Shown here: in pieces, positions 1,848-35,017 of the stretch
Position numbering within the stretch: position 1 is the stretch's first letter
Layout: every line of letters starts with the position of its first letter
Translations under genes and position numbers: made by a program
Source of the DNA: a virus
Direction: 5' to 3' (one strand)
Length of the DNA: 64,000 nt
Virus record (IMG/VR): IMGVR_UViG_3300035670_000086
Location: 1 to 64,000 of that record
The notes under the pieces: model-generated
Database searches by the model: none
Told to the model about the DNA's origin: nothing
What the model saw: the letters and a program-made list of their open reading frames with translations, nothing else

Positions 1848-2051
1848 TTAAATGCTAGTGATCTCACAGGTACAGCCATGAGATTGCCCATTCCTAAGGT
1901 TTCGCCCAATAAGAGCAACCTGCAACGGAGGATAGTCCATGAAGTCTGCTTCTCGGATCATGGAAACTACCTGATTAACTTCTTTCTCGTTAAAATCATA
2001 TCCATCGGGGACGGTGATCTTGATCGTGAAGTCTTTGTGGTTGTCGTTCAT
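1848..2051 (-). CDS. hypothetical early protein
   Basis: ATG 7 nt after the TATAAT of a promoter cassette. Confidence 0.7.
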   Translation of the reverse strand: MNDNHKDFTIKITVPDGYDFNEKEVNQVVSMIREADFMDYPPLQVALIGRNLRNGQSHGCTCEITSI

Positions 2052-2104
2052 GGTAGGTATTATAACCGATCAGGAAGAGATAGTCACGGGTTTTTTGAGA
2101 AATT
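2052..2104 (-). promoter_or_regulatory. early promoter cassette copy 1 (GTGACT-N17-TATAAT-N7-ATG)
   Basis: -35 2082-2087, -10 2059-2064, upstream A-tract; conserved spacer CCTGATCGGT. Confidence 0.8.
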
Positions 2105-2311
2105 AGTTTGGCTCATCCAATACTTTGTTTCTCGACGGGCAACAGTTAAATTTTCATCCTGATTATCCAAGAGCCTCCGAAGAGTGCAGATGATAGATTT
2201 AAGTTCTTGGACATCGTTGGTTTCAATATCCTTGGGGTCATAGTACCCGTTTAAGTTAGGCTTCATGTTGTTCATGGTAGGCAGTACCCATTTTTTGTTC
2301 ATGTTGCTCAT
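2084..2311 (-). CDS. hypothetical early protein
   Basis: ATG 7 nt after cassette -10; stop TGA lies inside the next cassette's -35 box. Confidence 0.7.
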   Translation of the reverse strand: MSNMNKKWVLPTMNNMKPNLNGYYDPKDIETNDVQELKSIICTLRRLLDNQDENLTVARRETKYWMSQTNFSKNP

Positions 2312-2355
2312 GGTAGCTATTATAACCGATCAGGAGGGGATAGTCACAGGTTTTC
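2312..2355 (-). promoter_or_regulatory. early promoter cassette copy 2
   Basis: GTGACT 2342-2347, N17, TATAAT 2319-2324, N7, ATG. Confidence 0.8.
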
Positions 2356-2703
2356 TTAGTTTTTTTTGAACAAACGCACATGATCTCTTACCCATGCGTT
2401 ATCTGATAAATGAACATTACCAGTTAGCCAAATATCATCTGTAACCCAAGCATTCCCAGAAATGCGAACATAACCAGAAATCCAAGCGTTACCATCTACC
2501 ATCCCGTTATCACAAACACAGGAGTGTTCATCCATTCGGGCAGTATCACTTACCCTAGCCTCCCCATATACACGAGCGTCAGGGCCAATATACGCAGTAT
2601 CAGCCACAGTTGCAGTATCAGCTACCCATCCTCCCCCATTGCTATGCTGGTGAGCAGGTACAGGGCCATTACCATCTTCAAAATCAAAGGTTGTGATGCT
2701 CAT
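2356..2703 (-). CDS. hexapeptide-repeat (left-handed beta-helix) protein
   Basis: Repeating VADTAT/VADTAY/IGPDAR/VYGEAR/VSDTAR/ISGNAW hexads after a GPVPAHQHSNGGGWVA head. Confidence 0.75.
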   Translation of the reverse strand: MSITTFDFEDGNGPVPAHQHSNGGGWVADTATVADTAYIGPDARVYGEARVSDTARMDEHSCVCDNGMVDGNAWISGYVRISGNAWVTDDIWLTGNVHLSDNAWVRDHVRLFKKN

Positions 2704-2715
2704 GGTAGGTATTTA

Positions 2716-2934
2716 TCAGGCAGATGCATCACATAAGCAGTATTTGGAATCAAGTTCGCCGCATTTACAAGACATAGCTAAGGGCAGGTAGTTGGTAGGA
2801 TATTTATCCATCCACCATTGAATTAACTTGTTCTGCTTACGCAGCATAATACGCATCTCTGCGATCTCCTTATCCTTGCTTTGCAGCTTTTCCGACATGA
2901 GATCAATCAGTAGGTTTGTTGCTTTGTCGTTCAT
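2716..2934 (-). CDS. hypothetical early protein
   Basis: ATG 7 nt after cassette -10. Confidence 0.7.
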   Translation of the reverse strand: MNDKATNLLIDLMSEKLQSKDKEIAEMRIMLRKQNKLIQWWMDKYPTNYLPLAMSCKCGELDSKYCLCDASA

Positions 2935-2987
2935 GGTAGGTATTATAACCGATCAGGAAGGGATAGTCACGAGGTTTTTGAGAATTT
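2935..2987 (-). promoter_or_regulatory. early promoter cassette copy 3
   Basis: GTGACT 2965-2970, N17, TATAAT 2942-2947, N7, ATG. Confidence 0.8.
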
Positions 2988-2989
2988 AT

Positions 2990-3295
2990 TTAACCTCTGT
3001 TGCCATACTCTAGATCTTTTTTCATGTTCTTGGCATCTCGGATAAAATCTTCACGAGTCTCAGGGCTGTGATTAAGATTCCGAACTTCTTCCTTGAGCGA
3101 CATTACCATATCACTTAGATAATCACGGACTGCCCACTCTTCGGACAATGCACCTACCGTAGGATTACTAAGAACTTTATTGATATGATTAAGAAGATAG
3201 TTATCCTCTTCAGTATTAATCAGATGATCACGCTGTGCTTCCAGTTGCAGGATAGTGGACTCGGACAAGGGCTTGTTGTAGGTTGCGGTCTTCAT
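2990..3295 (-). CDS. hypothetical early protein
   Basis: ATG 7 nt after cassette -10. Confidence 0.7.
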   Translation of the reverse strand: MKTATYNKPLSESTILQLEAQRDHLINTEEDNYLLNHINKVLSNPTVGALSEEWAVRDYLSDMVMSLKEEVRNLNHSPETREDFIRDAKNMKKDLEYGNRG

Positions 3296-3348
3296 GATGC
3301 TTAGTATAACCGATCAGGAGGGTTTGGTCACGGGTTTTTTGGGAATTT
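3296..3348 (-). promoter_or_regulatory. early promoter cassette copy 4
   Basis: GTGACC 3326-3331, N17, TATACT 3303-3308, N7, ATG. Confidence 0.8.
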
Positions 3349-3582
3349 ACTTAACTGCTTCTTTAAGTTTTCGATCTCGATAGAACGAAGATTGCAGAGA
3401 TCAGCAACCTCTACATACCTACCATGGAAATAATTAAGTTTCTCTTCAGTTTCCTTCAACTTAAGTTCCAATTCAGCGATCTCTAGTTTTCTAGATACTT
3501 CAGCATATCGTACACCCTCCTCCCATGCGTGATTCCAGACTTGGGAGTAGGTGAGTGAAAAGGTTGTTTCGTTGTTGCTCAT
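3328..3582 (-). CDS. hypothetical early coiled-coil protein
   Basis: ATG 7 nt after cassette -10; stop inside the next -35 box. Confidence 0.7.
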   Translation of the reverse strand: MSNNETTFSLTYSQVWNHAWEEGVRYAEVSRKLEIAELELKLKETEEKLNYFHGRYVEVADLCNLRSIEIENLKKQLSKFPKNP

Positions 3583-3635
3583 GGTAGATAATATAACCGA
3601 TCAGGATGGGATTGTCACGCACTTTTTCAGAATTT
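3583..3635 (-). promoter_or_regulatory. early promoter cassette copy 5
   Basis: GTGACA 3613-3618, N17, TATATT 3590-3595, N7, ATG. Confidence 0.78.
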
Positions 3636-3876
3636 ATTTATACCACTCTAGAACTTCATCGTTACCATTCAACCATTCCAAAGCCATCTCTTTGGCTAAG
3701 TCTTGTCCCTGAAAACCTTTAGATGCTTTATGTCTCTCACCTTCCCATCCATAAACAAAATAAGTGTTTCCGTAATCTTTAAAATGAATTACTTCCACTA
3801 CTCTAGTATCTTTGGATAGAAAGACACCATTTAAGTCTGGATCCTTAATTTTCTGCCAGTTACTCATTTGTGGCAC
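3634..3876 (-). CDS. hypothetical protein (start probably 3867)
   Basis: ORF; an ATG at 3867 overlaps the upstream stop. Confidence 0.65.
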   Translation of the reverse strand: MPQMSNWQKIKDPDLNGVFLSKDTRVVEVIHFKDYGNTYFVYGWEGERHKASKGFQGQDLAKEMALEWLNGNDEVLEWYK

Positions 3877-4061
3877 TCGATAAAAGCACAGGGGTGTTCG
3901 TTGTTGTAGAAGTCTTCTACATAACCAAAGAAGTCAGCAGAGGTATCGAAACTTCTGCGAAATTCTCCATTCCAAGATTCTGTTTGTTTACAGATAGGAC
4001 ACTTAGTCCAAGTATCCTCCAAACCAGAATCAAGCAGGATATATGTTGCTTTGTTATTCAT
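3864..4061 (-). CDS. hypothetical protein with CxxC
   Basis: CPIC...HPC; ATGA overlap. Confidence 0.65.
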   Translation of the reverse strand: MNNKATYILLDSGLEDTWTKCPICKQTESWNGEFRRSFDTSADFFGYVEDFYNNEHPCAFIECHK

Positions 4062-4348
4062 TGGTGAGGTTCCGATTTGATGTTATCTCCGAGCCAAGCC
4101 TTGCCGTTTTGAATCGTCTTAGTTGCTACTTGAATGATTCTGGGGGAGTCTTGATTATCTTCGTCTTCATATTCAAGTTCAGCAAGATCGGCAACAAGGG
4201 CAATATCATTGACTCGCTGTTCGATCCAGAAATTAGTCATTTCATGGCCGAAGCCATTGTTATCATCGACGCGCAACTTAACATCGTAAGTGCCACCAAC
4301 TTGTTGTTCTAGGACGGTTAGATCACGGATCAGTTGTGAGAGTCTCAT
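4058..4348 (-). CDS. hypothetical early protein
   Basis: ATG 7 nt after cassette -10. Confidence 0.7.
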   Translation of the reverse strand: MRLSQLIRDLTVLEQQVGGTYDVKLRVDDNNGFGHEMTNFWIEQRVNDIALVADLAELEYEDEDNQDSPRIIQVATKTIQNGKAWLGDNIKSEPHQ

Positions 4349-4401
4349 GGTAGGTATTATAACCGATCAGGAGGGTTTGGTCACGGGTTTTTTGAGAAAT
4401 T
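4349..4401 (-). promoter_or_regulatory. early promoter cassette copy 6
   Basis: GTGACC 4379-4384, N17, TATAAT 4356-4361, N7, ATG. Confidence 0.8.
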
Positions 4402-28306: not shown

Positions 28307-29354
28307 TTAGCTCTTTGAGTCCGTTTAGTAAATCTTGTTTATCTAACGGTGTGACACTACTATCAATGTAGTCTTCTATGATAGCTTCATTTATATTAAA
28401 CAATTGCCGCTCAGGACGGTAGTAGCTAATTTCCTTCTTCACATCTACCTTGCTATCAAATCTTAAATCTACCCAATTAATTAGTGGGTAATCAGATCTG
28501 ATCTTGCTGATCAAATCAAGGTCGTTGCCCTCCTTCAAAGGATTAGCAATAACACGAACTAAGTTAAAGTTCTCTTCACTCAACTTAAGAGATGGTAGAT
28601 CTTCTAGCTTGCAAATATGATGCTTGGGGCCTCCAACAGCAGGGATGGCTTTCCAATAGTTTCTCTTATTTTTGAACTTGTAGTGAATAACATAGTTTGG
28701 CTTACCTGCTTCTTGGAATGATGTAGTGTACGGAGTACCTACAACTACCACTTTATCTTTTGCTGAGTAGTGATGAATGTGTCCAAGAAAAGTAAGGTTA
28801 TCAAAGCACTCAAGAGGAATACGGAAGTCATTATCCCCAGCACTGTTAAGGCTCCCATGGTAACCAAAGTGACCAAATACAATGGCCCTTTTATCATTAA
28901 TGCTAGCAAGGTGATTCTTAATAGTTTCTTCATTTTCGTAGTGTGGGATTAAAATGCCCAAACCTCTATCTTCAGGTTCAAGACTTATTTTCAGCGGAAA
29001 CGACATAGGTTTATCTGTGCAAACCTTAGCATACTTCGATTCAAACAATGACAATGCAGTAAGACCATCATCAGCCTTGGATACTGCATCGTGATTTCCT
29101 CTTACAATAAAAACATCAGCATGTAGCTTGCTTAGAAGAGCTTTTAATGCAAGCATAACTTTTATGCTAGGATTTCTTTTATCGAAGATGTCCCCTAGAA
29201 ATACAACCTTAGGATAATTAATAGGACATATCTCATTGAAATCTTTTACCGTTTTCTCGATAAACGCACATTGTGCATCTAGGTAACCCGGAATATCATC
29301 TCGAAGGTGCAAGTCGCCAAAGATTAACATTTGAGGATCACGCATTTGTTTCAC
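28293..29354 (-). CDS. gp47: SbcD/Mre11-like nuclease (T4 gp47)
   Basis: GDLH, LGDIFD, GNHD, GH, GHIH metallophosphoesterase motifs. Confidence 0.9.
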   Translation of the reverse strand: MKQMRDPQMLIFGDLHLRDDIPGYLDAQCAFIEKTVKDFNEICPINYPKVVFLGDIFDKRNPSIKVMLALKALLSKLHADVFIVRGNHDAVSKADDGLTALSLFESKYAKVCTDKPMSFPLKISLEPEDRGLGILIPHYENEETIKNHLASINDKRAIVFGHFGYHGSLNSAGDNDFRIPLECFDNLTFLGHIHHYSAKDKVVVVGTPYTTSFQEAGKPNYVIHYKFKNKRNYWKAIPAVGGPKHHICKLEDLPSLKLSEENFNLVRVIANPLKEGNDLDLISKIRSDYPLINWVDLRFDSKVDVKKEISYYRPERQLFNINEAIIEDYIDSSVTPLDKQDLLNGLKELNEDQ

Positions 29355-30138
29355 CCCCTAAGATAGAAGACTTAGTTATTTCCATTCTGTTTAGATCAGG
29401 ACAGACGAGGGTGTATATAGAATTTGCTGCACGCTGAATCTCGAACTGGGCATCGGGGTGTAGTCGTTGCTGCAAGAAGTGTAGTACTCCCTGCAAGCTC
29501 ACAGTCCAGTACGCCTCTGTGTAGATGTTTTGTGGAAGCATCATACGGGCGATCTCTTTGGCGATACCTGATTCAATTCTTTCCTCGTATGCTTTGTATG
29601 CAGCTTCGCACTCATTAAACATCTTAATTCTAGCTGCTGAGTGATCGAAGTCTGATCCAAGCACAACACTAGCCTGCTTATTGCCGTGAGGAGGGTTTGC
29701 ACGCATCATCATCGGGATATAGAACTCAGGCTTAAATGGAGCGTATCGACCGCTCACCTCATTCCATGAGCAGCCCTTGTCTGTATCGTACATCAAATCA
29801 AACATCTCTACAGACACAGGATTCCCATCAACTTCGTATTTTCTCCAAGTGCTGCCTACCTGATACTTTATCCATTGACGGAGTGTAAATAGGGGAGCCT
29901 TAACATGGAAGGTATAGTAGCTATGACGGAAGGGAGATGTATGCGAGTGTGCAAGAAGGAACTTGATTAAATTAATATCCTTCTCTTCCATCTCGTACCG
30001 TACTTTAGAATAACTAATGCGTGCTGCGTTTACTACTTTCAAGGCAGCATCATTTTTCATTCTATCTACGATTGAAATAAATCCAATACCATCGTTGAGA
30101 AAATAACTTCTATTAGGGTTTTCAGCCGACAATGACAT
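29338..30138 (-). CDS. thyX: flavin-dependent thymidylate synthase
   Basis: VNAARISY, HTSPF, WNEVSGRY, GIAKEIARMMLP, R....AQFEI; AAGGAG SD before ATG 30138. Confidence 0.88.
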   Translation of the reverse strand: MSLSAENPNRSYFLNDGIGFISIVDRMKNDAALKVVNAARISYSKVRYEMEEKDINLIKFLLAHSHTSPFRHSYYTFHVKAPLFTLRQWIKYQVGSTWRKYEVDGNPVSVEMFDLMYDTDKGCSWNEVSGRYAPFKPEFYIPMMMRANPPHGNKQASVVLGSDFDHSAARIKMFNECEAAYKAYEERIESGIAKEIARMMLPQNIYTEAYWTVSLQGVLHFLQQRLHPDAQFEIQRAANSIYTLVCPDLNRMEITKSSILGGETNA

Positions 30139-31234
30139 TCTTAATCTCCTTGATATTGGCGACACCGCCACTCTTGTTAAACTTTACATCTACACCGCCA
30201 CCGAAGGAAGTTCCTACTTCTACCTCAATAGCCATAGGTACTGCACAATTAAATCCCATGACCTTACGGAGGTAGGGGTATTGTGTCATTTTATGATTCA
30301 TAATCATCAGAGCTTCGTCAATCTCGTCCTTAGGACTAACAACTTCAATCGAGTCGTGTACGCTTGCAACAACACGAGATTGCATGTTTTGTGCTTTGAA
30401 CTCTTGAGCAATATCTAGAAGTGCGAAGGTTGTGATCTCTGATGCGGAGCTTTGAATAATAAAGTTCACACCCTGACGCTCGCAGCGAGAACGGATCTTG
30501 GGGATAGGAGATCTGATATTGTCTAAATTTCTACGGCGACCGAAAATACTCTTGGCATACTTGTTCTTGTTAATGTATTCCTTGACCTCATTCATCCAAG
30601 CAAACACGCCGGGATAAACCGTTCCATAAGTATCAATGATGTCTTTAGCTTCGTCGATATCAATATTAACAGTTTTACTGAGCTTGAACTCGCTACCACC
30701 GTACACAATCAAGAACGAAACTGATTTAGCGATCTGGCGTTCTTCCTTAGTAATCTGGTCAATAGGCTTCTTCCAAATAAGCGAGGCTGTGTACTTGTGT
30801 AGGTCTTGACCAGAGAAGAACGCCTGAATTAGATTCTTGTCTTTGCACACATGAGCCAAGATTCTAAGTTCCATCGCTGAGTAGTCAGCAGCGATAAAGT
30901 AGTGATCCTTAGGAGCTACGAATAGGCTACGGATGTTCGGATCCTTAGTCCGAGGCAAAGTGTGGAACGACACACCCATATTCTCACGAGCGGAATATGC
31001 AGCACAAGACAATCGTCCTGTAACTGTGCCATCGAATCGGAAGTCGTAGTACACCTTATCATGACCGTTATATGTGACGGCTTTCCCCACGCCATCAATG
31101 TAGGTGGACTGCAACTTCTCTAGACCACGAAGCTCTTGAAGTTTGTTCAAGAAGTCGCGTGCTCGTTCTAGCTTCTCAGTAGGAGTGCTGCTGATTACAC
31201 TCTTACTGACTGCAATAGGATCAGTTCTTGCCAT
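30122..31234 (-). CDS. polA: family A DNA polymerase, C-terminal piece (thumb end, palm, fingers)
   Basis: KLQSTY, TVTGRLS, motif A ADYSAMELR, motif B RQIAKSVSFLIVYG, motif C VHDS. Confidence 0.93.
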   Translation of the reverse strand: MARTDPIAVSKSVISSTPTEKLERARDFLNKLQELRGLEKLQSTYIDGVGKAVTYNGHDKVYYDFRFDGTVTGRLSCAAYSARENMGVSFHTLPRTKDPNIRSLFVAPKDHYFIAADYSAMELRILAHVCKDKNLIQAFFSGQDLHKYTASLIWKKPIDQITKEERQIAKSVSFLIVYGGSEFKLSKTVNIDIDEAKDIIDTYGTVYPGVFAWMNEVKEYINKNKYAKSIFGRRRNLDNIRSPIPKIRSRCERQGVNFIIQSSASEITTFALLDIAQEFKAQNMQSRVVASVHDSIEVVSPKDEIDEALMIMNHKMTQYPYLRKVMGFNCAVPMAIEVEVGTSFGGGVDVKFNKSGGVANIKEIKNVIVG

Positions 31235-31775
31235 AGATGTAATTATAGAGCCGAACCGCTTGTTTTTCTAGCTCTTCCACCGTACCCTCATTACGGATAC
31301 GAACATCATATGGATATGAATCTAAAGATATCTCAGAGACATCTTTCTCAAACTCGGGGTTAGCTCCTCTTTCCTCGCGGATCTCATCAGATGCCTCGAT
31401 CCGAACAACTAATACTTTTCTGTGAGTGTTAGCTGCAAAGAACTTACCATTCTCTATTTCGTTTGGGTAACGAGCATCTGTGATGATTACATTATTTTGC
31501 TGGTATTCATCACTGTAGTAGATGTGATCTGCCCAAGTGTGTGGAGCTATCGCACGGACAAGGTTACCACCGAAAATTAGCCTCTCTCTATAGAGTTTTT
31601 TCTTTTCGGGATCATGTAGATCTTCTACAGGAACGCCTAGGACTTGTGCGGACAGTCTCTTCAACTCATCTGCAAATGCCATGCGGCGCAGAGAAGGATC
31701 GAGCTTAATCATAATCTTTGCAAGCTCGTCCTTCCCTGCACGCATCTTACCTGTTAATAACAATGTATACTTCAT
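31221..31775 (-). CDS. deoxynucleoside monophosphate kinase
   Basis: GKMRAGKD P-loop, AFADELK, VIITDARYPNE, SE, IRNEGT. Confidence 0.85.
   Translation of the reverse strand: MKYTLLLTGKMRAGKDELAKIMIKLDPSLRRMAFADELKRLSAQVLGVPVEDLHDPEKKKLYRERLIFGGNLVRAIAPHTWADHIYYSDEYQQNNVIITDARYPNEIENGKFFAANTHRKVLVVRIEASDEIREERGANPEFEKDVSEISLDSYPYDVRIRNEGTVEELEKQAVRLYNYIYGKN
31235..31248 (-). promoter_or_regulatory. -10 element giving a leaderless start for the polymerase C-terminal piece
   Basis: CTATAAT-TACATCT-ATG, same 7-nt geometry as the early cassettes. Confidence 0.55.
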
Positions 31776-32248
31776 CTCGACTCCAGTTCATCTTCTATCT
31801 GCTCTAACAAGATCTCTATACACTCTGAGTTTACTGATGGCTTCCCCTTCGCCGTGTTCACAGGAGGATACAGTTGAAAACTATCTTCCCGTGTGAATAG
31901 GATATCTACCAAGTCAGCCGAGGAATTCATATTGTCTTCCACAGCTACTTCTGGGATAGCCTTGATGTCCTGATGCTTACCAGTGATCTTAGCTTCAAGG
32001 TCTGCATTAAGTTTGTCTAGTGTACTTGAGTCTACTTCCAGACCATTGTACTCGATTTCAGCAAATACAGGGGTCATGGGGGCAATTAGATTCTCGTACA
32101 GGTGATGTAACTCTAACTCCTTAAGCTGATCCTCCAACAAGTGGAAGATCTTCCAAGTGAAGAATGCATCTTGTGCATTACCTTCAGCCAACTCGGTGAG
32201 AGACATCTCAGCCCAGTTCTGCTTCTTGGGATCCTTAACGGTTAACAT
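31772..32248 (-). CDS. polA: family A DNA polymerase, middle piece (ExoIII and N-part of thumb)
   Basis: GNAQDAFFT (ExoIII Asp), EIEYNGLEVD, NMNSSADL..ILF, TAKGKPSVNSECIE; AAGGAG SD. Confidence 0.85.
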   Translation of the reverse strand: MLTVKDPKKQNWAEMSLTELAEGNAQDAFFTWKIFHLLEDQLKELELHHLYENLIAPMTPVFAEIEYNGLEVDSSTLDKLNADLEAKITGKHQDIKAIPEVAVEDNMNSSADLVDILFTREDSFQLYPPVNTAKGKPSVNSECIEILLEQIEDELESR

Positions 32249-33267
32249 CAGAACTCCTTCAGGTACTCGGGGAAGTATTGCTTAACAAGATCCATTAACG
32301 ACTTGGGTGCGTCTTCACGGATAAAGTGAGATACTAGCTTAGTGTCCCACACATTCGTAAAGGTGATTCCCTGCCCATACAAGAACTTCAGGTCGAACTT
32401 AGCGTTCTGTAGAATCTTCTTGTTGTTGGGGTTGTTGAAGATCTTGTTTAGTATAATAGCCACCTGCTTACGGTCTTCTACGGAAAACGGAGATTCTTTG
32501 TGGATGTAAGGAATGATGGCTTGCTTTAATTCTCCGTCCTGCTTGTAAGAGATAGCTATCGTCATGATGGAATCCTTCTTGAAATCCAAACCCGTAGTTT
32601 CAATGTCTACAGCAATGTTTTCCTTCTGTCCGTATAAGAAGGACAGATTTTCTAGCTGTTCTAGCGACATTATGATCTCGTAAGGCACAATCAGTTCACT
32701 ATCCTTCTTTAGGATATACTTATTGTACCCGTTACGGATATCCTGCTGGAAGAGGGTTACGAGCTTTGGCTCAATGGATACCGAGGCTGGGTGCAGGATG
32801 GGGATGACGGGGATACCATTGTAATCAAAAGTCTTGCCCCGCTTGTTAGTAATGCCAGACTTCTTAATAAGCATCTTCATGGCTAGGTTGCCACAAGTAA
32901 AGATTAGCTTTGGCTTGTACTGATCTACCGTAGCCTGTAAGTGGTTTCGGCAGATTTCCATGTTAGAGGGAGACATATCCTCCTCCTTAACATCTGGACA
33001 CTTGATTGCAGCAGCCACAGCGTACTTTTTAATTATTGGGTTAACATAACCCTTAAAGACCGCCTCCTCACCCTTGTCGGAAAGGTTGGTAATCTCAAAC
33101 CCTCCCCAACGGAGTGAGTCCATAAGGAACAAAACATCAGTCTGCTCTGCTCCAGTGTAGTCCATATGAGCATGGATAGGCTTGGGCTTGTCTAGAATAG
33201 AACATCCTTGGCAAACAGGATTGTTGCAGTTTTTTCTATTCTTATAGAGATCTAAAAGGTCTACCAT
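32248..33267 (-). CDS. polA: family A DNA polymerase, N-terminal piece (family-4 UDG-like domain plus ExoI/ExoII)
   Basis: CQGC..KCP..C Fe-S-type cysteines, KPKLIFTCGNLA, ILHPA; DIETTGLD, QNAKFDLKFL, WDTKL. Confidence 0.85.
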   Translation of the reverse strand: MVDLLDLYKNRKNCNNPVCQGCSILDKPKPIHAHMDYTGAEQTDVLFLMDSLRWGGFEITNLSDKGEEAVFKGYVNPIIKKYAVAAAIKCPDVKEEDMSPSNMEICRNHLQATVDQYKPKLIFTCGNLAMKMLIKKSGITNKRGKTFDYNGIPVIPILHPASVSIEPKLVTLFQQDIRNGYNKYILKKDSELIVPYEIIMSLEQLENLSFLYGQKENIAVDIETTGLDFKKDSIMTIAISYKQDGELKQAIIPYIHKESPFSVEDRKQVAIILNKIFNNPNNKKILQNAKFDLKFLYGQGITFTNVWDTKLVSHFIREDAPKSLMDLVKQYFPEYLKEF

Positions 33268-33276
33268 ACTTTAGTT

Positions 33277-33289
33277 ACCTATTATAGGT
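33277..33289. promoter_or_regulatory. palindromic bidirectional -10 element between polA and gp55
   Basis: ACCTATTATAGGT reads TATTAT on plus and TATAAT on minus in a 23-nt divergent gap. Confidence 0.6.
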
Positions 33290-33290
33290 T

Positions 33291-33698
33291 ATGAGTAAGT
33301 ATTATCTTGATAACAAGCGTTTTGAGGAGTTGATCGTATTATACCTCAAGTACGATAAGAAAAAACGGAAAAAAGGCCCAAACCCATACGAGGATGAATT
33401 GATGGCCTTGTTTGATTTACTAATATCAACTATATTAGAGTCTTTTAAATTTAATGTGGATTTGGAGGATGCCAAGCAAGAATGTTTTCTGCTGATCATA
33501 AAGAAGTTAAAAAACTTTGATCCCAATCACGGAAGTGCTTTTAACTACTTTACAACAGTCATACTTAATAACCTTAGGTTGGTCTACACTAAGGCTAAGA
33601 AGTATGATAAAAAAATTGCGGACCTTTTTGAGATCCGCAAAGATTCGTCAGTAATCGTTCTCGTCAATCCCGAAAGTCCAAAGAATTCTAGAAGGTAA
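33291..33698 (+). CDS. gp55: T4 gp55-like late sigma factor
   Basis: YYLDNKRF...EDAKQEC...NFDP..GSAFNYFTTV. Confidence 0.75.
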   Translation: MSKYYLDNKRFEELIVLYLKYDKKKRKKGPNPYEDELMALFDLLISTILESFKFNVDLEDAKQECFLLIIKKLKNFDPNHGSAFNYFTTVILNNLRLVYTKAKKYDKKIADLFEIRKDSSVIVLVNPESPKNSRR

Positions 33699-34010
33699 AA
33701 CTTCCTTGAATATCTTGTACTCTCTTAGTCTTTTTCTATTCTCATAGAAGTAGCAGACTGGAACTGATGTGCAGGGGATGGTCTTATCAACTTCTGTGAA
33801 AAGATCAGGAGTCTCAAAGGAATCAATCAAAAAGACTGTCGAGAACACATCATTCCCGGGCTTTTGCAATTGATCCAAGATGTAGGTACATCTGTCATCC
33901 CAAGGAGACTTAAAGAAAACAGCGAAACCGTTTTTATCTTTCTGCCCCTGTATCTGCCTGATTGATTTGAATAGATGATTTCTATTTTTTATTTCAATCA
34001 GTTCCATCAT
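33648..34010 (-). CDS. thioredoxin-fold protein lacking the first catalytic Cys
   Basis: AVFFKSPWDDRC, LIDSFETPDL, SVPVCYFY. Confidence 0.55.
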   Translation of the reverse strand: MMELIEIKNRNHLFKSIRQIQGQKDKNGFAVFFKSPWDDRCTYILDQLQKPGNDVFSTVFLIDSFETPDLFTEVDKTIPCTSVPVCYFYENRKRLREYKIFKEVLPSRILWTFGIDENDY

Positions 34011-34432
34011 AGTTTAGGTGCTTCTTCAGCAACTGTAACGGAGCCTTCGGATTGACCTTGTTGAGCTTCCACTTCGGCACGCATCTTAGCATAGCCTTCG
34101 GGATCTTCTTGACGGAACTGTTCGATCCGCTTTGCAAAATCTTGTTGCAAGGCTTCTACTCCCTTGTAAAACAAGAACTTAGCAAAATCATCATTCGATA
34201 GATGATCGGGCTTCGCCAGTTTACAGAAGTTGTTAAAACCTTCGGCCTCGTCCTTGGCAAACTTTAGTGTAATTTTCATGCGACCTTTCTTATGTCCTTC
34301 TGATTTAAACTCAATTTTTGAGGTTGAGTTATCTAATGATACTTTTATTAATCTTGAAGATTCAAACTTTTTAGCTGATTTGACGGTCAACTTATTATTT
34401 GAATCGGTTATTGGGAGTTGTTTTGTTTCCAT
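34007..34432 (-). CDS. hypothetical protein
   Basis: ORF; METKQ start downstream of a CTATTAT element. Confidence 0.7.
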   Translation of the reverse strand: METKQLPITDSNNKLTVKSAKKFESSRLIKVSLDNSTSKIEFKSEGHKKGRMKITLKFAKDEAEGFNNFCKLAKPDHLSNDDFAKFLFYKGVEALQQDFAKRIEQFRQEDPEGYAKMRAEVEAQQGQSEGSVTVAEEAPKL

Positions 34433-34449
34433 AAAAGAAAACCTTTCCC

Positions 34450-34458
34450 CTATAATAG
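34450..34458. promoter_or_regulatory. palindromic bidirectional -10 element CTATAATAG
   Basis: Centre of the second divergent gap (34432/34478). Confidence 0.55.
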
Positions 34459-34477
34459 TCAGGAAGGATAAGAAAAT

Positions 34478-35017
34478 ATGCAAGACGAATACGATCTAAG
34501 CAAACTAGTTAAGAATAAGAAGAAGCGATTGAACAGCAAGAACAAAGGCAATACTTTTCAACGAAAGATTGCACAGATCTTTAATGAACACTTACAAACT
34601 GAAGAGTTTGCTCCTACGCCGGGGTCAGGGGCATTCGCAACCACGCACAACTTACCACAGCATCTTCAGATCTATGGGGACTTAATTACCCCTAAGAACT
34701 TTAATTTTGTATTAGAATGTAAAAAAGGATACAACAAAGAAAACATAGGATCTACATTTACAGATAAGTCTTTGATACGGGATGCTTTAGCACAAGTAGA
34801 AAGAGATGCTAAGAAGTGCAATAAAATACCATTAGTAATCTTTCAACAGGATAGAAAAGATATCCTTTGTGTCATTCCTTGCACCAGTTTTCAGGATCAG
34901 TTTTTATCTAAACTAAGCTATTATGTAGTATTAAAAAAAGAGTATATAATAATAAAACTAAAAGAGTTATTAAGTATATACCCTAAGGAATCTAGTTTCT
35001 GGTTTAACTACTTCTGA
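34478..35017 (+). CDS. Hjc-like Holliday junction resolvase (PD-(D/E)xK)
   Basis: NSKNKGNTFQRKIA, PGSGA, GDL, LECKKGY, PLVIFQQDR. Confidence 0.8.
   Translation: MQDEYDLSKLVKNKKKRLNSKNKGNTFQRKIAQIFNEHLQTEEFAPTPGSGAFATTHNLPQHLQIYGDLITPKNFNFVLECKKGYNKENIGSTFTDKSLIRDALAQVERDAKKCNKIPLVIFQQDRKDILCVIPCTSFQDQFLSKLSYYVVLKKEYIIIKLKELLSIYPKESSFWFNYF

Follow-up and report, generated by a model that had tools for sequence, protein, structure and literature searches.

DNA polymerase I (PolA) is the textbook example of a single-chain polymerase, and its proofreading site is generally thought of as one compact domain. In the T7-like cyanophages of the S-SBP1-like/S-TIP37-like group (clade B), however, PolA is split into an exonuclease gene and a polymerase gene by gene fission (Czernecki et al. 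2023, PMC10201439; also PMC12695635). The first of these studies calls this separation the first seen in PolAs, reports an AlphaFold-predicted complex of the S-SBP1-type pieces that superposes on an unsplit relative and also describes single-chain PolAs that contain uracil-DNA glycosylase (UDG) as a domain (PMC10201439). Other replication enzymes in pieces are found in the T4-related phage Aeh1, where the family B polymerase (PolB) gp43 is reported to be encoded as 43A and 43B and nrdA to be split by mobE (PMC2988022, PMC3045599), and the OM43 phages provide a further precedent for split enzymes (PMC10580990). Here we analyze a family A polymerase in a 64,000-nucleotide stretch of viral DNA (hereafter, the window), the first 64 kb of the 99.9-kb IMG/VR record IMGVR_UViG_3300035670_000086, which is 89% complete according to CheckV. 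In this window, the polymerase is distributed over three genes, which we denote p1, p2 and p3, with a kinase gene located in the second of the two breaks. We estimate at roughly 85% the probability that this is a replicative UDG-PolA produced in the form of three distinct chains which associate non-covalently, that the cuts are ancient gene fissions and that the kinase is a passenger. This reading draws on the gene structure, its conservation, the selection acting on it, the intact catalytic residues, the lack of any other polymerase found in the record and the confinement of the kinase to a single lineage.

One family A polymerase in three genes

The genes p1, p2, kinase and p3 are four minus-strand open reading frames that overlap head to tail and are followed by thyX, sbcD and sbcC (Table 1). 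A first-pass annotation, made from the sequence alone, had delineated these four frames and had traced PolA motifs collinearly over three of them; all four sets of coordinates were recovered, and the collinearity was borne out as well, given that p1, p2 and p3 match one PHROGs polymerase family, phrog_17, in consecutive order (477-785, 800-935 and 929-1240, respectively) and follow the Klenow fragment in the same order. In Pfam, p3 scores 278.7 bits against DNA_pol_A (PF00476, cut-off 34.3), covering positions 61-379 of the 381 in the profile, and p2 weakly covers positions 3-69 of the same profile, whereas p1 combines a UDG domain (PF03167, 34.9 bits against a cut-off of 24.3) with positions 1-128 of the 173 in the DNA_pol_A_exo1 profile (PF01612). 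Alignment to Klenow places p2 residues 12-147 on residues 486-617, with D27 of p2 on the ExoIII aspartate D501; p3 enters at about residue 607 and includes thumb helix I (YRGLAKLKSTY). Break 1 is located in the loop between ExoII and ExoIII, at about position 128 of 173 in the exo1 profile. Break 2 falls within the thumb (positions ~61-69 of the DNA_pol_A profile), where it separates the counterpart of the Klenow 607-617 helix from helix I. The Pfam, PHROGs and Klenow mappings are in agreement with the proposal of the first-pass annotation that both the exonuclease site (ExoI and ExoII on p1, ExoIII on p2) and the thumb (p2 and p3) are divided between chains. The surplus is about zero residues at break 1; at break 2, it comes to about 38 residues, spread over both new ends. 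The C-terminus of p2 and the N-terminus of p3 may both resemble the Klenow 607-617 helix.

The catalytic residues of the polymerase and the exonuclease carboxylates are retained. In p1, the ExoI (D221-x-E223) and ExoII (N288...D292) motifs of the DEDDy type are invariant or nearly so in an alignment of 18 sequences. In p3, the same holds across 22 sequences for motif A (D117..E122), motif B (R166/K170/F174/Y178-G179) and motif C (H293-D294), so that p3 belongs to PolA both by its DNA_pol_A score, far above the cut-off, and by all three motifs; the residue following the HD of motif C is Ser, not Glu, and an invariant glutamate (E297) is found two positions later. The first-pass annotation had assigned ExoIII to p2, which holds for the aspartate (D27, invariant in a 48-sequence alignment) and not for the canonical Y-x3-D motif: the p2 region reads G23-N24-A-x-D27 (window 32168-32182, minus strand, p2 residues 23-27), with Gly23 aligned to the ExoIII tyrosine, Klenow Y497.

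The N-terminal UDG-like domain of p1 (residues 1-185, window 32713-33267) contains four invariant cysteines (C19, C22, C90 and C106), the spacing of which resembles that of the 4Fe-4S ligands in family-4 UDGs. The alignment of this domain with the Thermus enzyme 1ui0, a family-4 UDG, extends to the histidine of the HP(A/S) motif (H159), and the domain is classed as family-4 UDG-like. A motif of the GE(A/G)PG type, which we take to be typical of family-4 UDGs, is apparently replaced by (S/M)-D-S in p1. In one 76% relative (L015:5985-7003), a deletion and a frameshift affect the UDG-like part of p1, and the remaining 242-residue reading frame begins just upstream of the exonuclease part; either misassembly or a variant that lacks the UDG-like domain could account for this.

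Modelled alone with AlphaFold2, p2 is all-helical (helices 17-44, 48-68, 74-96, 110-119 and 141-157) with a predicted local distance difference test score (pLDDT) of 89; its final helix of 17 residues (141-157) includes the acidic tail, a conserved helix ending in LLEQIEDELESR. The model of p3 alone (pLDDT 80) has an N-terminal helix at residues 6-15 and a 38-residue helix at 19-56 that extends helix I. These models are compatible with packing of the extended p2-tail and p3 N-terminal helices against each other at the thumb break. In a Foldseek search with the isolated p2 model, the top matches were all PolA large fragments, with weak E-values (0.015 or worse) and a template modelling (TM) score of about 0.46, as would be expected when an extended fragment is modelled out of context.

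Table 1. Coordinates of the split polymerase locus in the window.
Feature	Coordinates	Strand	Content
p1 (339 aa)	32248..33267	-	UDG-like family-4 domain at the N-terminus, then first two-thirds of the 3'-5' exonuclease domain (ExoI/II)
Junction 1	32246..32259	-	AAGGAG (32259..32254), 5 nt, p2 ATG (32248..32246) overlapping p1 TGA (32250..32248) as TGATG
p2 (158 aa), bridging piece	31772..32248	-	ExoIII helix and first part of the polymerase domain/thumb
Kinase (184 aa), T4 gp1-type dNMP kinase-like	31221..31775	-	P-loop TGKMRAGKD; located in the second break
p3 start region	31232..31270	-	TAGAAA-17-TATAAT (31270..31242), 7 nt, ATG (31234..31232)
p3 (370 aa)	30122..31234	-	N-terminal extension helices, thumb helix I, palm, fingers; motifs A-C
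ThyX gene	29338..30171	-	Pfam PF02511; overlaps the end of p3

Junctions, spread and selection

The start signal that the first-pass annotation had proposed for p2, AAGGAG-N5-ATG inside TGATG, was confirmed by reading the junction, and a TAATG/TGATG overlap at p1/p2 is kept in about 17 lineages without an insert at break 1. In relatives that have no insert between p2 and p3, the p3 start lies inside the p2 stop or a few nucleotides before it, and all these insert-free junctions read as classical translational coupling. In the window, p2 and the kinase overlap as ATGA, and the kinase and p3 overlap by 14 nucleotides, with the kinase stop (31223..31221) 11 nucleotides inside p3. No Shine-Dalgarno sequence is visible before p3 of the window, for which a TATAAT-N7-ATG start had been suggested. 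The TAGAAA-17-TATAAT element in front of p3 is the best promoter-like match in positions 29000-34600 (10 of 12 positions), TATAAT-N7-ATG occurs six times in the window against 1.47 expected, and the sequence of the p3 start region is identical in a 95% relative (L012). Furthermore, where an inserted gene uncouples p2 from p1, p2 is preceded by TAATAT/TATTAT-N6-ATG, again without a Shine-Dalgarno sequence. A leaderless start of the uncoupled pieces, p3 of the window included, thus appears to be a reasonable reading. Elsewhere in the window (2049-4361, minus strand), there are four near-identical copies of GTGAC-N20-GGTTATAATA(C/G)CTACCATG, with the -10 box 7 nucleotides before ATG. We considered the p3 upstream region as a copy of this repeated early-promoter cassette (located at 2-5 kb) and rejected this possibility, the two having only TATAAT-N7-ATG in common.

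Rejoining of the pieces into one chain, by RNA splicing, protein splicing, programmed frameshifting or read-through, is highly improbable. The stop and start codons overlap and therefore leave no room for an intron; no Rfam intron match was detected at E-values up to 1; and the pieces contain no intein domain of Pfam and no intein-like termini (p2 begins with MLTV and p3 with MART, no Cys, Ser or Thr follows an HN, and the surplus at break 2 amounts to only about 38 residues), all of which upholds the view of the first-pass annotation that neither an intein nor an intron is involved. Stop codons separate the three frames not only in the window but also at over 40 related loci, so that a single UDG-exonuclease-polymerase polypeptide is not encoded. 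Moreover, break 2 of the window holds the 555-nucleotide kinase gene in another frame, and unrelated genes are lodged in break 1 in at least seven related lineages (L033, L036, L038, L043, L050, L068 and L071; also L111:4992-5420). Those on the opposite strand encode basic proteins of 142-330 residues and putative lipoproteins, those on the same strand small membrane proteins, and none of these inserted genes has a Pfam match. The opposite-strand genes rule out a read-through or spliced single chain in these relatives. What speaks for rejoining is a single contig (L055:7286-8128) in which, compared with L050 and L053, a 2-nucleotide indel in the junction (AAGAAGAAATA[TA]AGAA), which is A-rich in that lineage, puts p2 and p3 in one frame; this fusion could be either a natural re-fusion or a sequencing error. 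On the strength of the missing Rfam and intein matches and the opposite-strand genes, the intron, intein and frameshift readings were rejected.

The same four-gene arrangement is present at 95-99% identity in contigs of three other metagenomes (L002-L004) and is therefore not an assembly artefact. The more distant relatives with the same break points that the first-pass annotation had recommended looking for were also found. Relatives at 75-90% identity (L005-L008 and L013-L018) encode p1, p2 and p3 with the same ends and without the kinase, the stop of p2 and the start of p3 sharing an ATGA; at 38-54% identity, about 35 viral contigs encode separate p1 (336-342 residues), p2 (158-170 residues) and p3 (355-375 residues), usually with thyX next. 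The order p1-p2-p3 is retained in every locus examined, and single-chain UDG-PolAs (750-1150 residues) appear only at 31% identity or less in a wider scan. Stand-alone p2 proteins of 157-181 residues form roughly 100 clusters at 50% identity in an exhaustive profile search, and stand-alone p1 proteins of ~336-345 residues form 586 clusters in a word-based search. The sources of these pieces include Tara, JGI, ENA and NCBI, and the database labels attached to them are 'uracil-DNA glycosylase family 4', 'DNA polymerase-1', 'DNA polymerase I-like' or 'hypothetical protein'. Among GenBank phages, the region has no megablast match; a tblastn search with p2 yielded three weak matches only and no cultured phage with a p2 homologue; and for p3, the top matches come from Bacillus and Staphylococcus myoviruses (~31-35% identity).

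Every comparison of p1 and of p3 gives a ratio of nonsynonymous to synonymous substitution rates (dN/dS) of 0.02-0.10. For p2, it is 0.03 in the sole comparison with unsaturated dS, and elsewhere the proportion of nonsynonymous differences (pN) in p2 is far below that of synonymous ones (pS). A broken and decaying polymerase gene, in a phage that relies on the host polymerase or on another one of its own, has hardly any probability in the light of these values, on which the pseudogene reading was rejected. The loss of the ExoIII tyrosine, the incompleteness of the record and the frameshift in the UDG-like part of p1 in L015 would fit decay, but the break points are identical down to ~38% identity, the catalytic residues are invariant, the translational coupling is conserved and no PolB, PolC/PolIII-alpha or second PolA was found in the 99.9-kb record, 89% complete as it is. 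Of the outcomes that would have undone the first-pass interpretation, neither an assembly artefact nor neutral decay alongside another polymerase was borne out in the record. Taken together, the comparisons indicate that the split is old and under selection.

The inserted kinase and the history of the breaks

The gene in break 2 encodes a protein that matches the deoxynucleoside monophosphate (dNMP) kinase family phrog_139 over residues 1-183 (E-value 1.6e-25); its score for the Pfam family DNMK, 22.7 bits, is below the cut-off of 27.1, and its P-loop is T4 gp1-like. The gene is single-copy in the genome. When compared with two relatives (L013 and L017), the insertion maps precisely to the former start codon of p3: the kinase employs the original GGAG-N5-ATG together with the ATGA overlap shared with p2, and p3 was given a new ATG 11 nucleotides before the kinase stop. 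The first-pass annotation suggested that the kinase is part of the system or may associate with the enzyme, a view that did not survive the comparison with relatives. A search for relatives with the same insertion found it only at 95% identity or more, the nearest other kinases being ~35% identical or less; the p2 C-terminus (...EELESR) and the p3 N-terminus, which the first-pass annotation had put forward as a possible docking interface, are the same in relatives without the kinase; and a phrog_139 kinase was detected in none of five larger related records, of which one is 100% complete. Because it is absent from these five records and from the 75-90% relatives with identical ends, the kinase is most likely a recently captured nucleotide-metabolism passenger and not a polymerase subunit.

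It is accordingly improbable that the kinase serves the split polymerase as fourth subunit or as docking partner and channels the synthesis of deoxynucleoside di- and triphosphates (dNDP/dNTP) to it. Its position exactly at the second break, with translational coupling on both sides, would suit such a role, and so would the content of another split locus (L069:5797-9306), an independent two-piece split in a distantly related UDG-PolA, whose break holds a nucleoside 2-deoxyribosyltransferase-like gene (PF05014, Nuc_deoxyrib_tr) and a 5'-deoxynucleotidase gene (NT5C, E-value 7e-46). However, in addition to the distribution of the kinase described above, its location is not special, as the replication module of the window is full of nucleotide-metabolism genes anyway, among them those for ThyX and ribonucleotide reductase (RNR).

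A profile search also recovered proteins of 480-563 residues that run from the p2 N-terminus (MLT[VI]...) through the polymerase C-terminus and are thus cut only at break 1. In a quick maximum-likelihood search on the polymerase part, with 21 three-part forms, seven two-part forms and fused UDG-PolAs and with the root placed at the midpoint, the three-part and two-part forms together make up one clade (Shimodaira-Hasegawa-like approximate likelihood ratio test, SH-aLRT, 99), sister to the fused metagenomic UDG-PolAs (98). The two-part forms are mostly basal in the split clade, and p3 of the window is basal in the three-part group. Provisionally, break 1 is probably the older of the two, with break 2 arising later within an already split clade. 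It appears that break 2 can toggle, as suggested by the indel in L055 and by a two-part form, P0103, that is nested in the tree.

The change in ExoIII coincides with the split. All split forms, two-part and three-part alike, have G-N-A-x-D (G-C in one of them) and keep the aspartate, and all the fused relatives examined keep the tyrosine. With this tyrosine lost in the split forms, proofreading may therefore be weakened or work differently, and the proofreading site is, as the aligned residues indicate, both divided between p1 and p2 and remodelled. These observations bear on the possibility that the pieces are independent factors, for example, with p1 as a free UDG/exonuclease-like repair protein and p2 plus p3 as a proofreading-free polymerase. 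Besides the loss of the tyrosine in all split forms, the frequent uncoupling of break 1 by inserted genes, with p2 then having its own promoter-like box, is in line with independent pieces. Nevertheless, we consider this possibility unlikely: by itself, p1 does not have the ExoIII helix that belongs to the exonuclease fold; within p2, conservation is among the highest at the ExoIII aspartate and at the N-terminus (MLTV...GNAxD), which would be unexpected if p2 no longer completed an exonuclease site; and no locus examined departs from the p1-p2-p3 order.

Several points weigh against a three-piece UDG-PolA as outlined here. The canonical ExoIII tyrosine is missing from every split form; the ~11% of the genome that is not in the record could hold a second polymerase; the order of the fissions is taken from a quick midpoint-rooted tree, in which P0103, a two-part form, nests among three-part forms; and the physical assembly of the pieces, their activity and the start mode of p3 are deduced from sequences.

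Proposed assembly, genomic context and comparison with known systems

Under the preferred reading, p1 would supply the UDG-like Fe-S domain and the ExoI and ExoII carboxylates. The p2 protein would be a bridge, its first helix providing the ExoIII aspartate and completing the exonuclease fold with p1, and the remainder forming the base and the first half of the thumb, whereas p3 would supply thumb helix I, the palm and the fingers. The overlapping stop and start codons would couple translation, and the pieces would therefore be made in similar amounts. The two cuts would be ancient gene fissions, after which the kinase would have taken over the original start signals of p3, and p3 would have acquired another start, whether without a leader from TATAAT-N7-ATG or through reinitiation. 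A more far-reaching and rather doubtful extension of this scheme is that p1 is a dissociable editing subunit, that the fission inside the proofreading domain is tied to the rebuilt active site, that proofreading or uracil sensing is tuned by stoichiometry or exchange of the pieces and that the breaks serve as landing sites for genes, such as the kinase, captured with leaderless promoters.

A large, apparently abundant clade of uncultured aquatic phages thus encodes the proofreading site and the DNA-gripping thumb on different polypeptides, an organization kept through deep divergence. This clade represents a natural experiment on where the polymerase fold tolerates chain breaks and could provide protein engineers with a three-part polymerase that nature has already split. 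The replacement of the ExoIII tyrosine by Gly-Asn, strictly linked as it is to the split, amounts to a bench-testable hypothesis on proofreading chemistry. The clade also carries a warning for annotation, as it will be overlooked or miscounted in virus surveys that use PolA and count on full-length genes.

The structural genes in the window are distantly T4-like; the major head protein matches phrog_138, with ~33% identity to cyanomyovirus capsids, and a tail sheath protein is also encoded. Downstream of the tripartite polymerase, most relatives have thyX as a conserved neighbour (p1-p2-p3-thyX order across loci). In some relatives, an endonuclease VII-type gene (PF02945) or a 160-residue gene without known function is found between p3 and thyX (L035:8577-8960; L037:3937-4419; L070:1818-2294), which makes p3/thyX a third insertion-prone junction in the module. 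On the other side of the locus, a 135-residue gene (33291-33698, plus strand) is divergent from p1, 23 nucleotides from its start, and keeps this position in all relatives, including a contig from a Prochlorococcus single-cell genome. It has no PHROG match at 1e-5, and its stretch ...ECFLLIIKKL...SAFNYFTTVILNNLR may resemble sigma-factor region 2.

The latter contig (L111; QCKN01000003.1, Prochlorococcus sp. AG-409-P03, 130,604 bp) encodes the same three-part polymerase at 46% identity, in the layout p1, insert, p2, p3, sbcD, sbcC. It is a close parallel to the IMG/VR record behind L043, which is complete at 129.9 kb, and the opposite-strand insert in break 1 is the same in both. A link between the marine branch of the clade and Prochlorococcus cells is possible; for the host of the phage in the window itself, this gives nothing firm.

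Among the described systems, the S-SBP1 type resembles the present one in that adjacent separate genes derived by fission, with no intron or intein and with overlapping start and stop codons, encode pieces that are presumed to reassemble non-covalently. The S-SBP1-type polymerase, however, belongs to the T7-like subfamily and consists of two pieces, with the exonuclease domain severed from the polymerase domain, a break that is not the one seen in the window, where a UDG-PolA, with Gly-Asn for the ExoIII tyrosine, is in three pieces, one cut lying in the exonuclease domain and the other in the thumb. The single-chain UDG-PolAs of SPO1, SP-10 and the N4-like cluster 17 (Czernecki et al. 2023) have the same order of family-4 UDG-like, 3'-5' exonuclease and polymerase parts, but in one polypeptide of ~750-1100 residues with a canonical ExoIII Y-x3-D, as opposed to three polypeptides and G-N-A-x-D in the window.

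A three-gene annotation of PolA also exists in cultured phages, the LUZ24-like Pseudomonas phages (Bruynoghevirus), with gp25 labelled 'DNA polymerase exonuclease subunit', gp34 'DNA polymerase part II' and gp36 'DNA polymerase'. In these phages, many unrelated genes, including one for endonuclease VII, lie between the PolA pieces, there is no UDG domain and the breaks are elsewhere: gp25 covers positions 79-171 of 173 in the exonuclease profile (weakly), gp34 positions 47-150 of 381 in the polymerase profile and gp36 positions 295-381 of 381, around motif C. No close sequence relationship between the LUZ24 pieces and those of the window was detectable.

Aeh1, according to the reports cited above, shares with the window an essential replication enzyme in separately translated chains that work as a complex and the presence, in some cases, of a foreign gene in the break. 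The enzymes concerned in Aeh1 are a family B polymerase and RNR, and the breaks are tied to homing-endonuclease genes, whereas neither break in the window contains an endonuclease gene and the genes inserted in its relatives are mostly of unassigned function.

In the literature searched, no PolA was found described in which one cut separates ExoII from ExoIII and a second one divides the thumb. The term 'undescribed system' used in the first-pass annotation is too strong: split PolAs are known, although the break positions reported here are new to the literature searched, and the insertion of the kinase is what is specific to this window.

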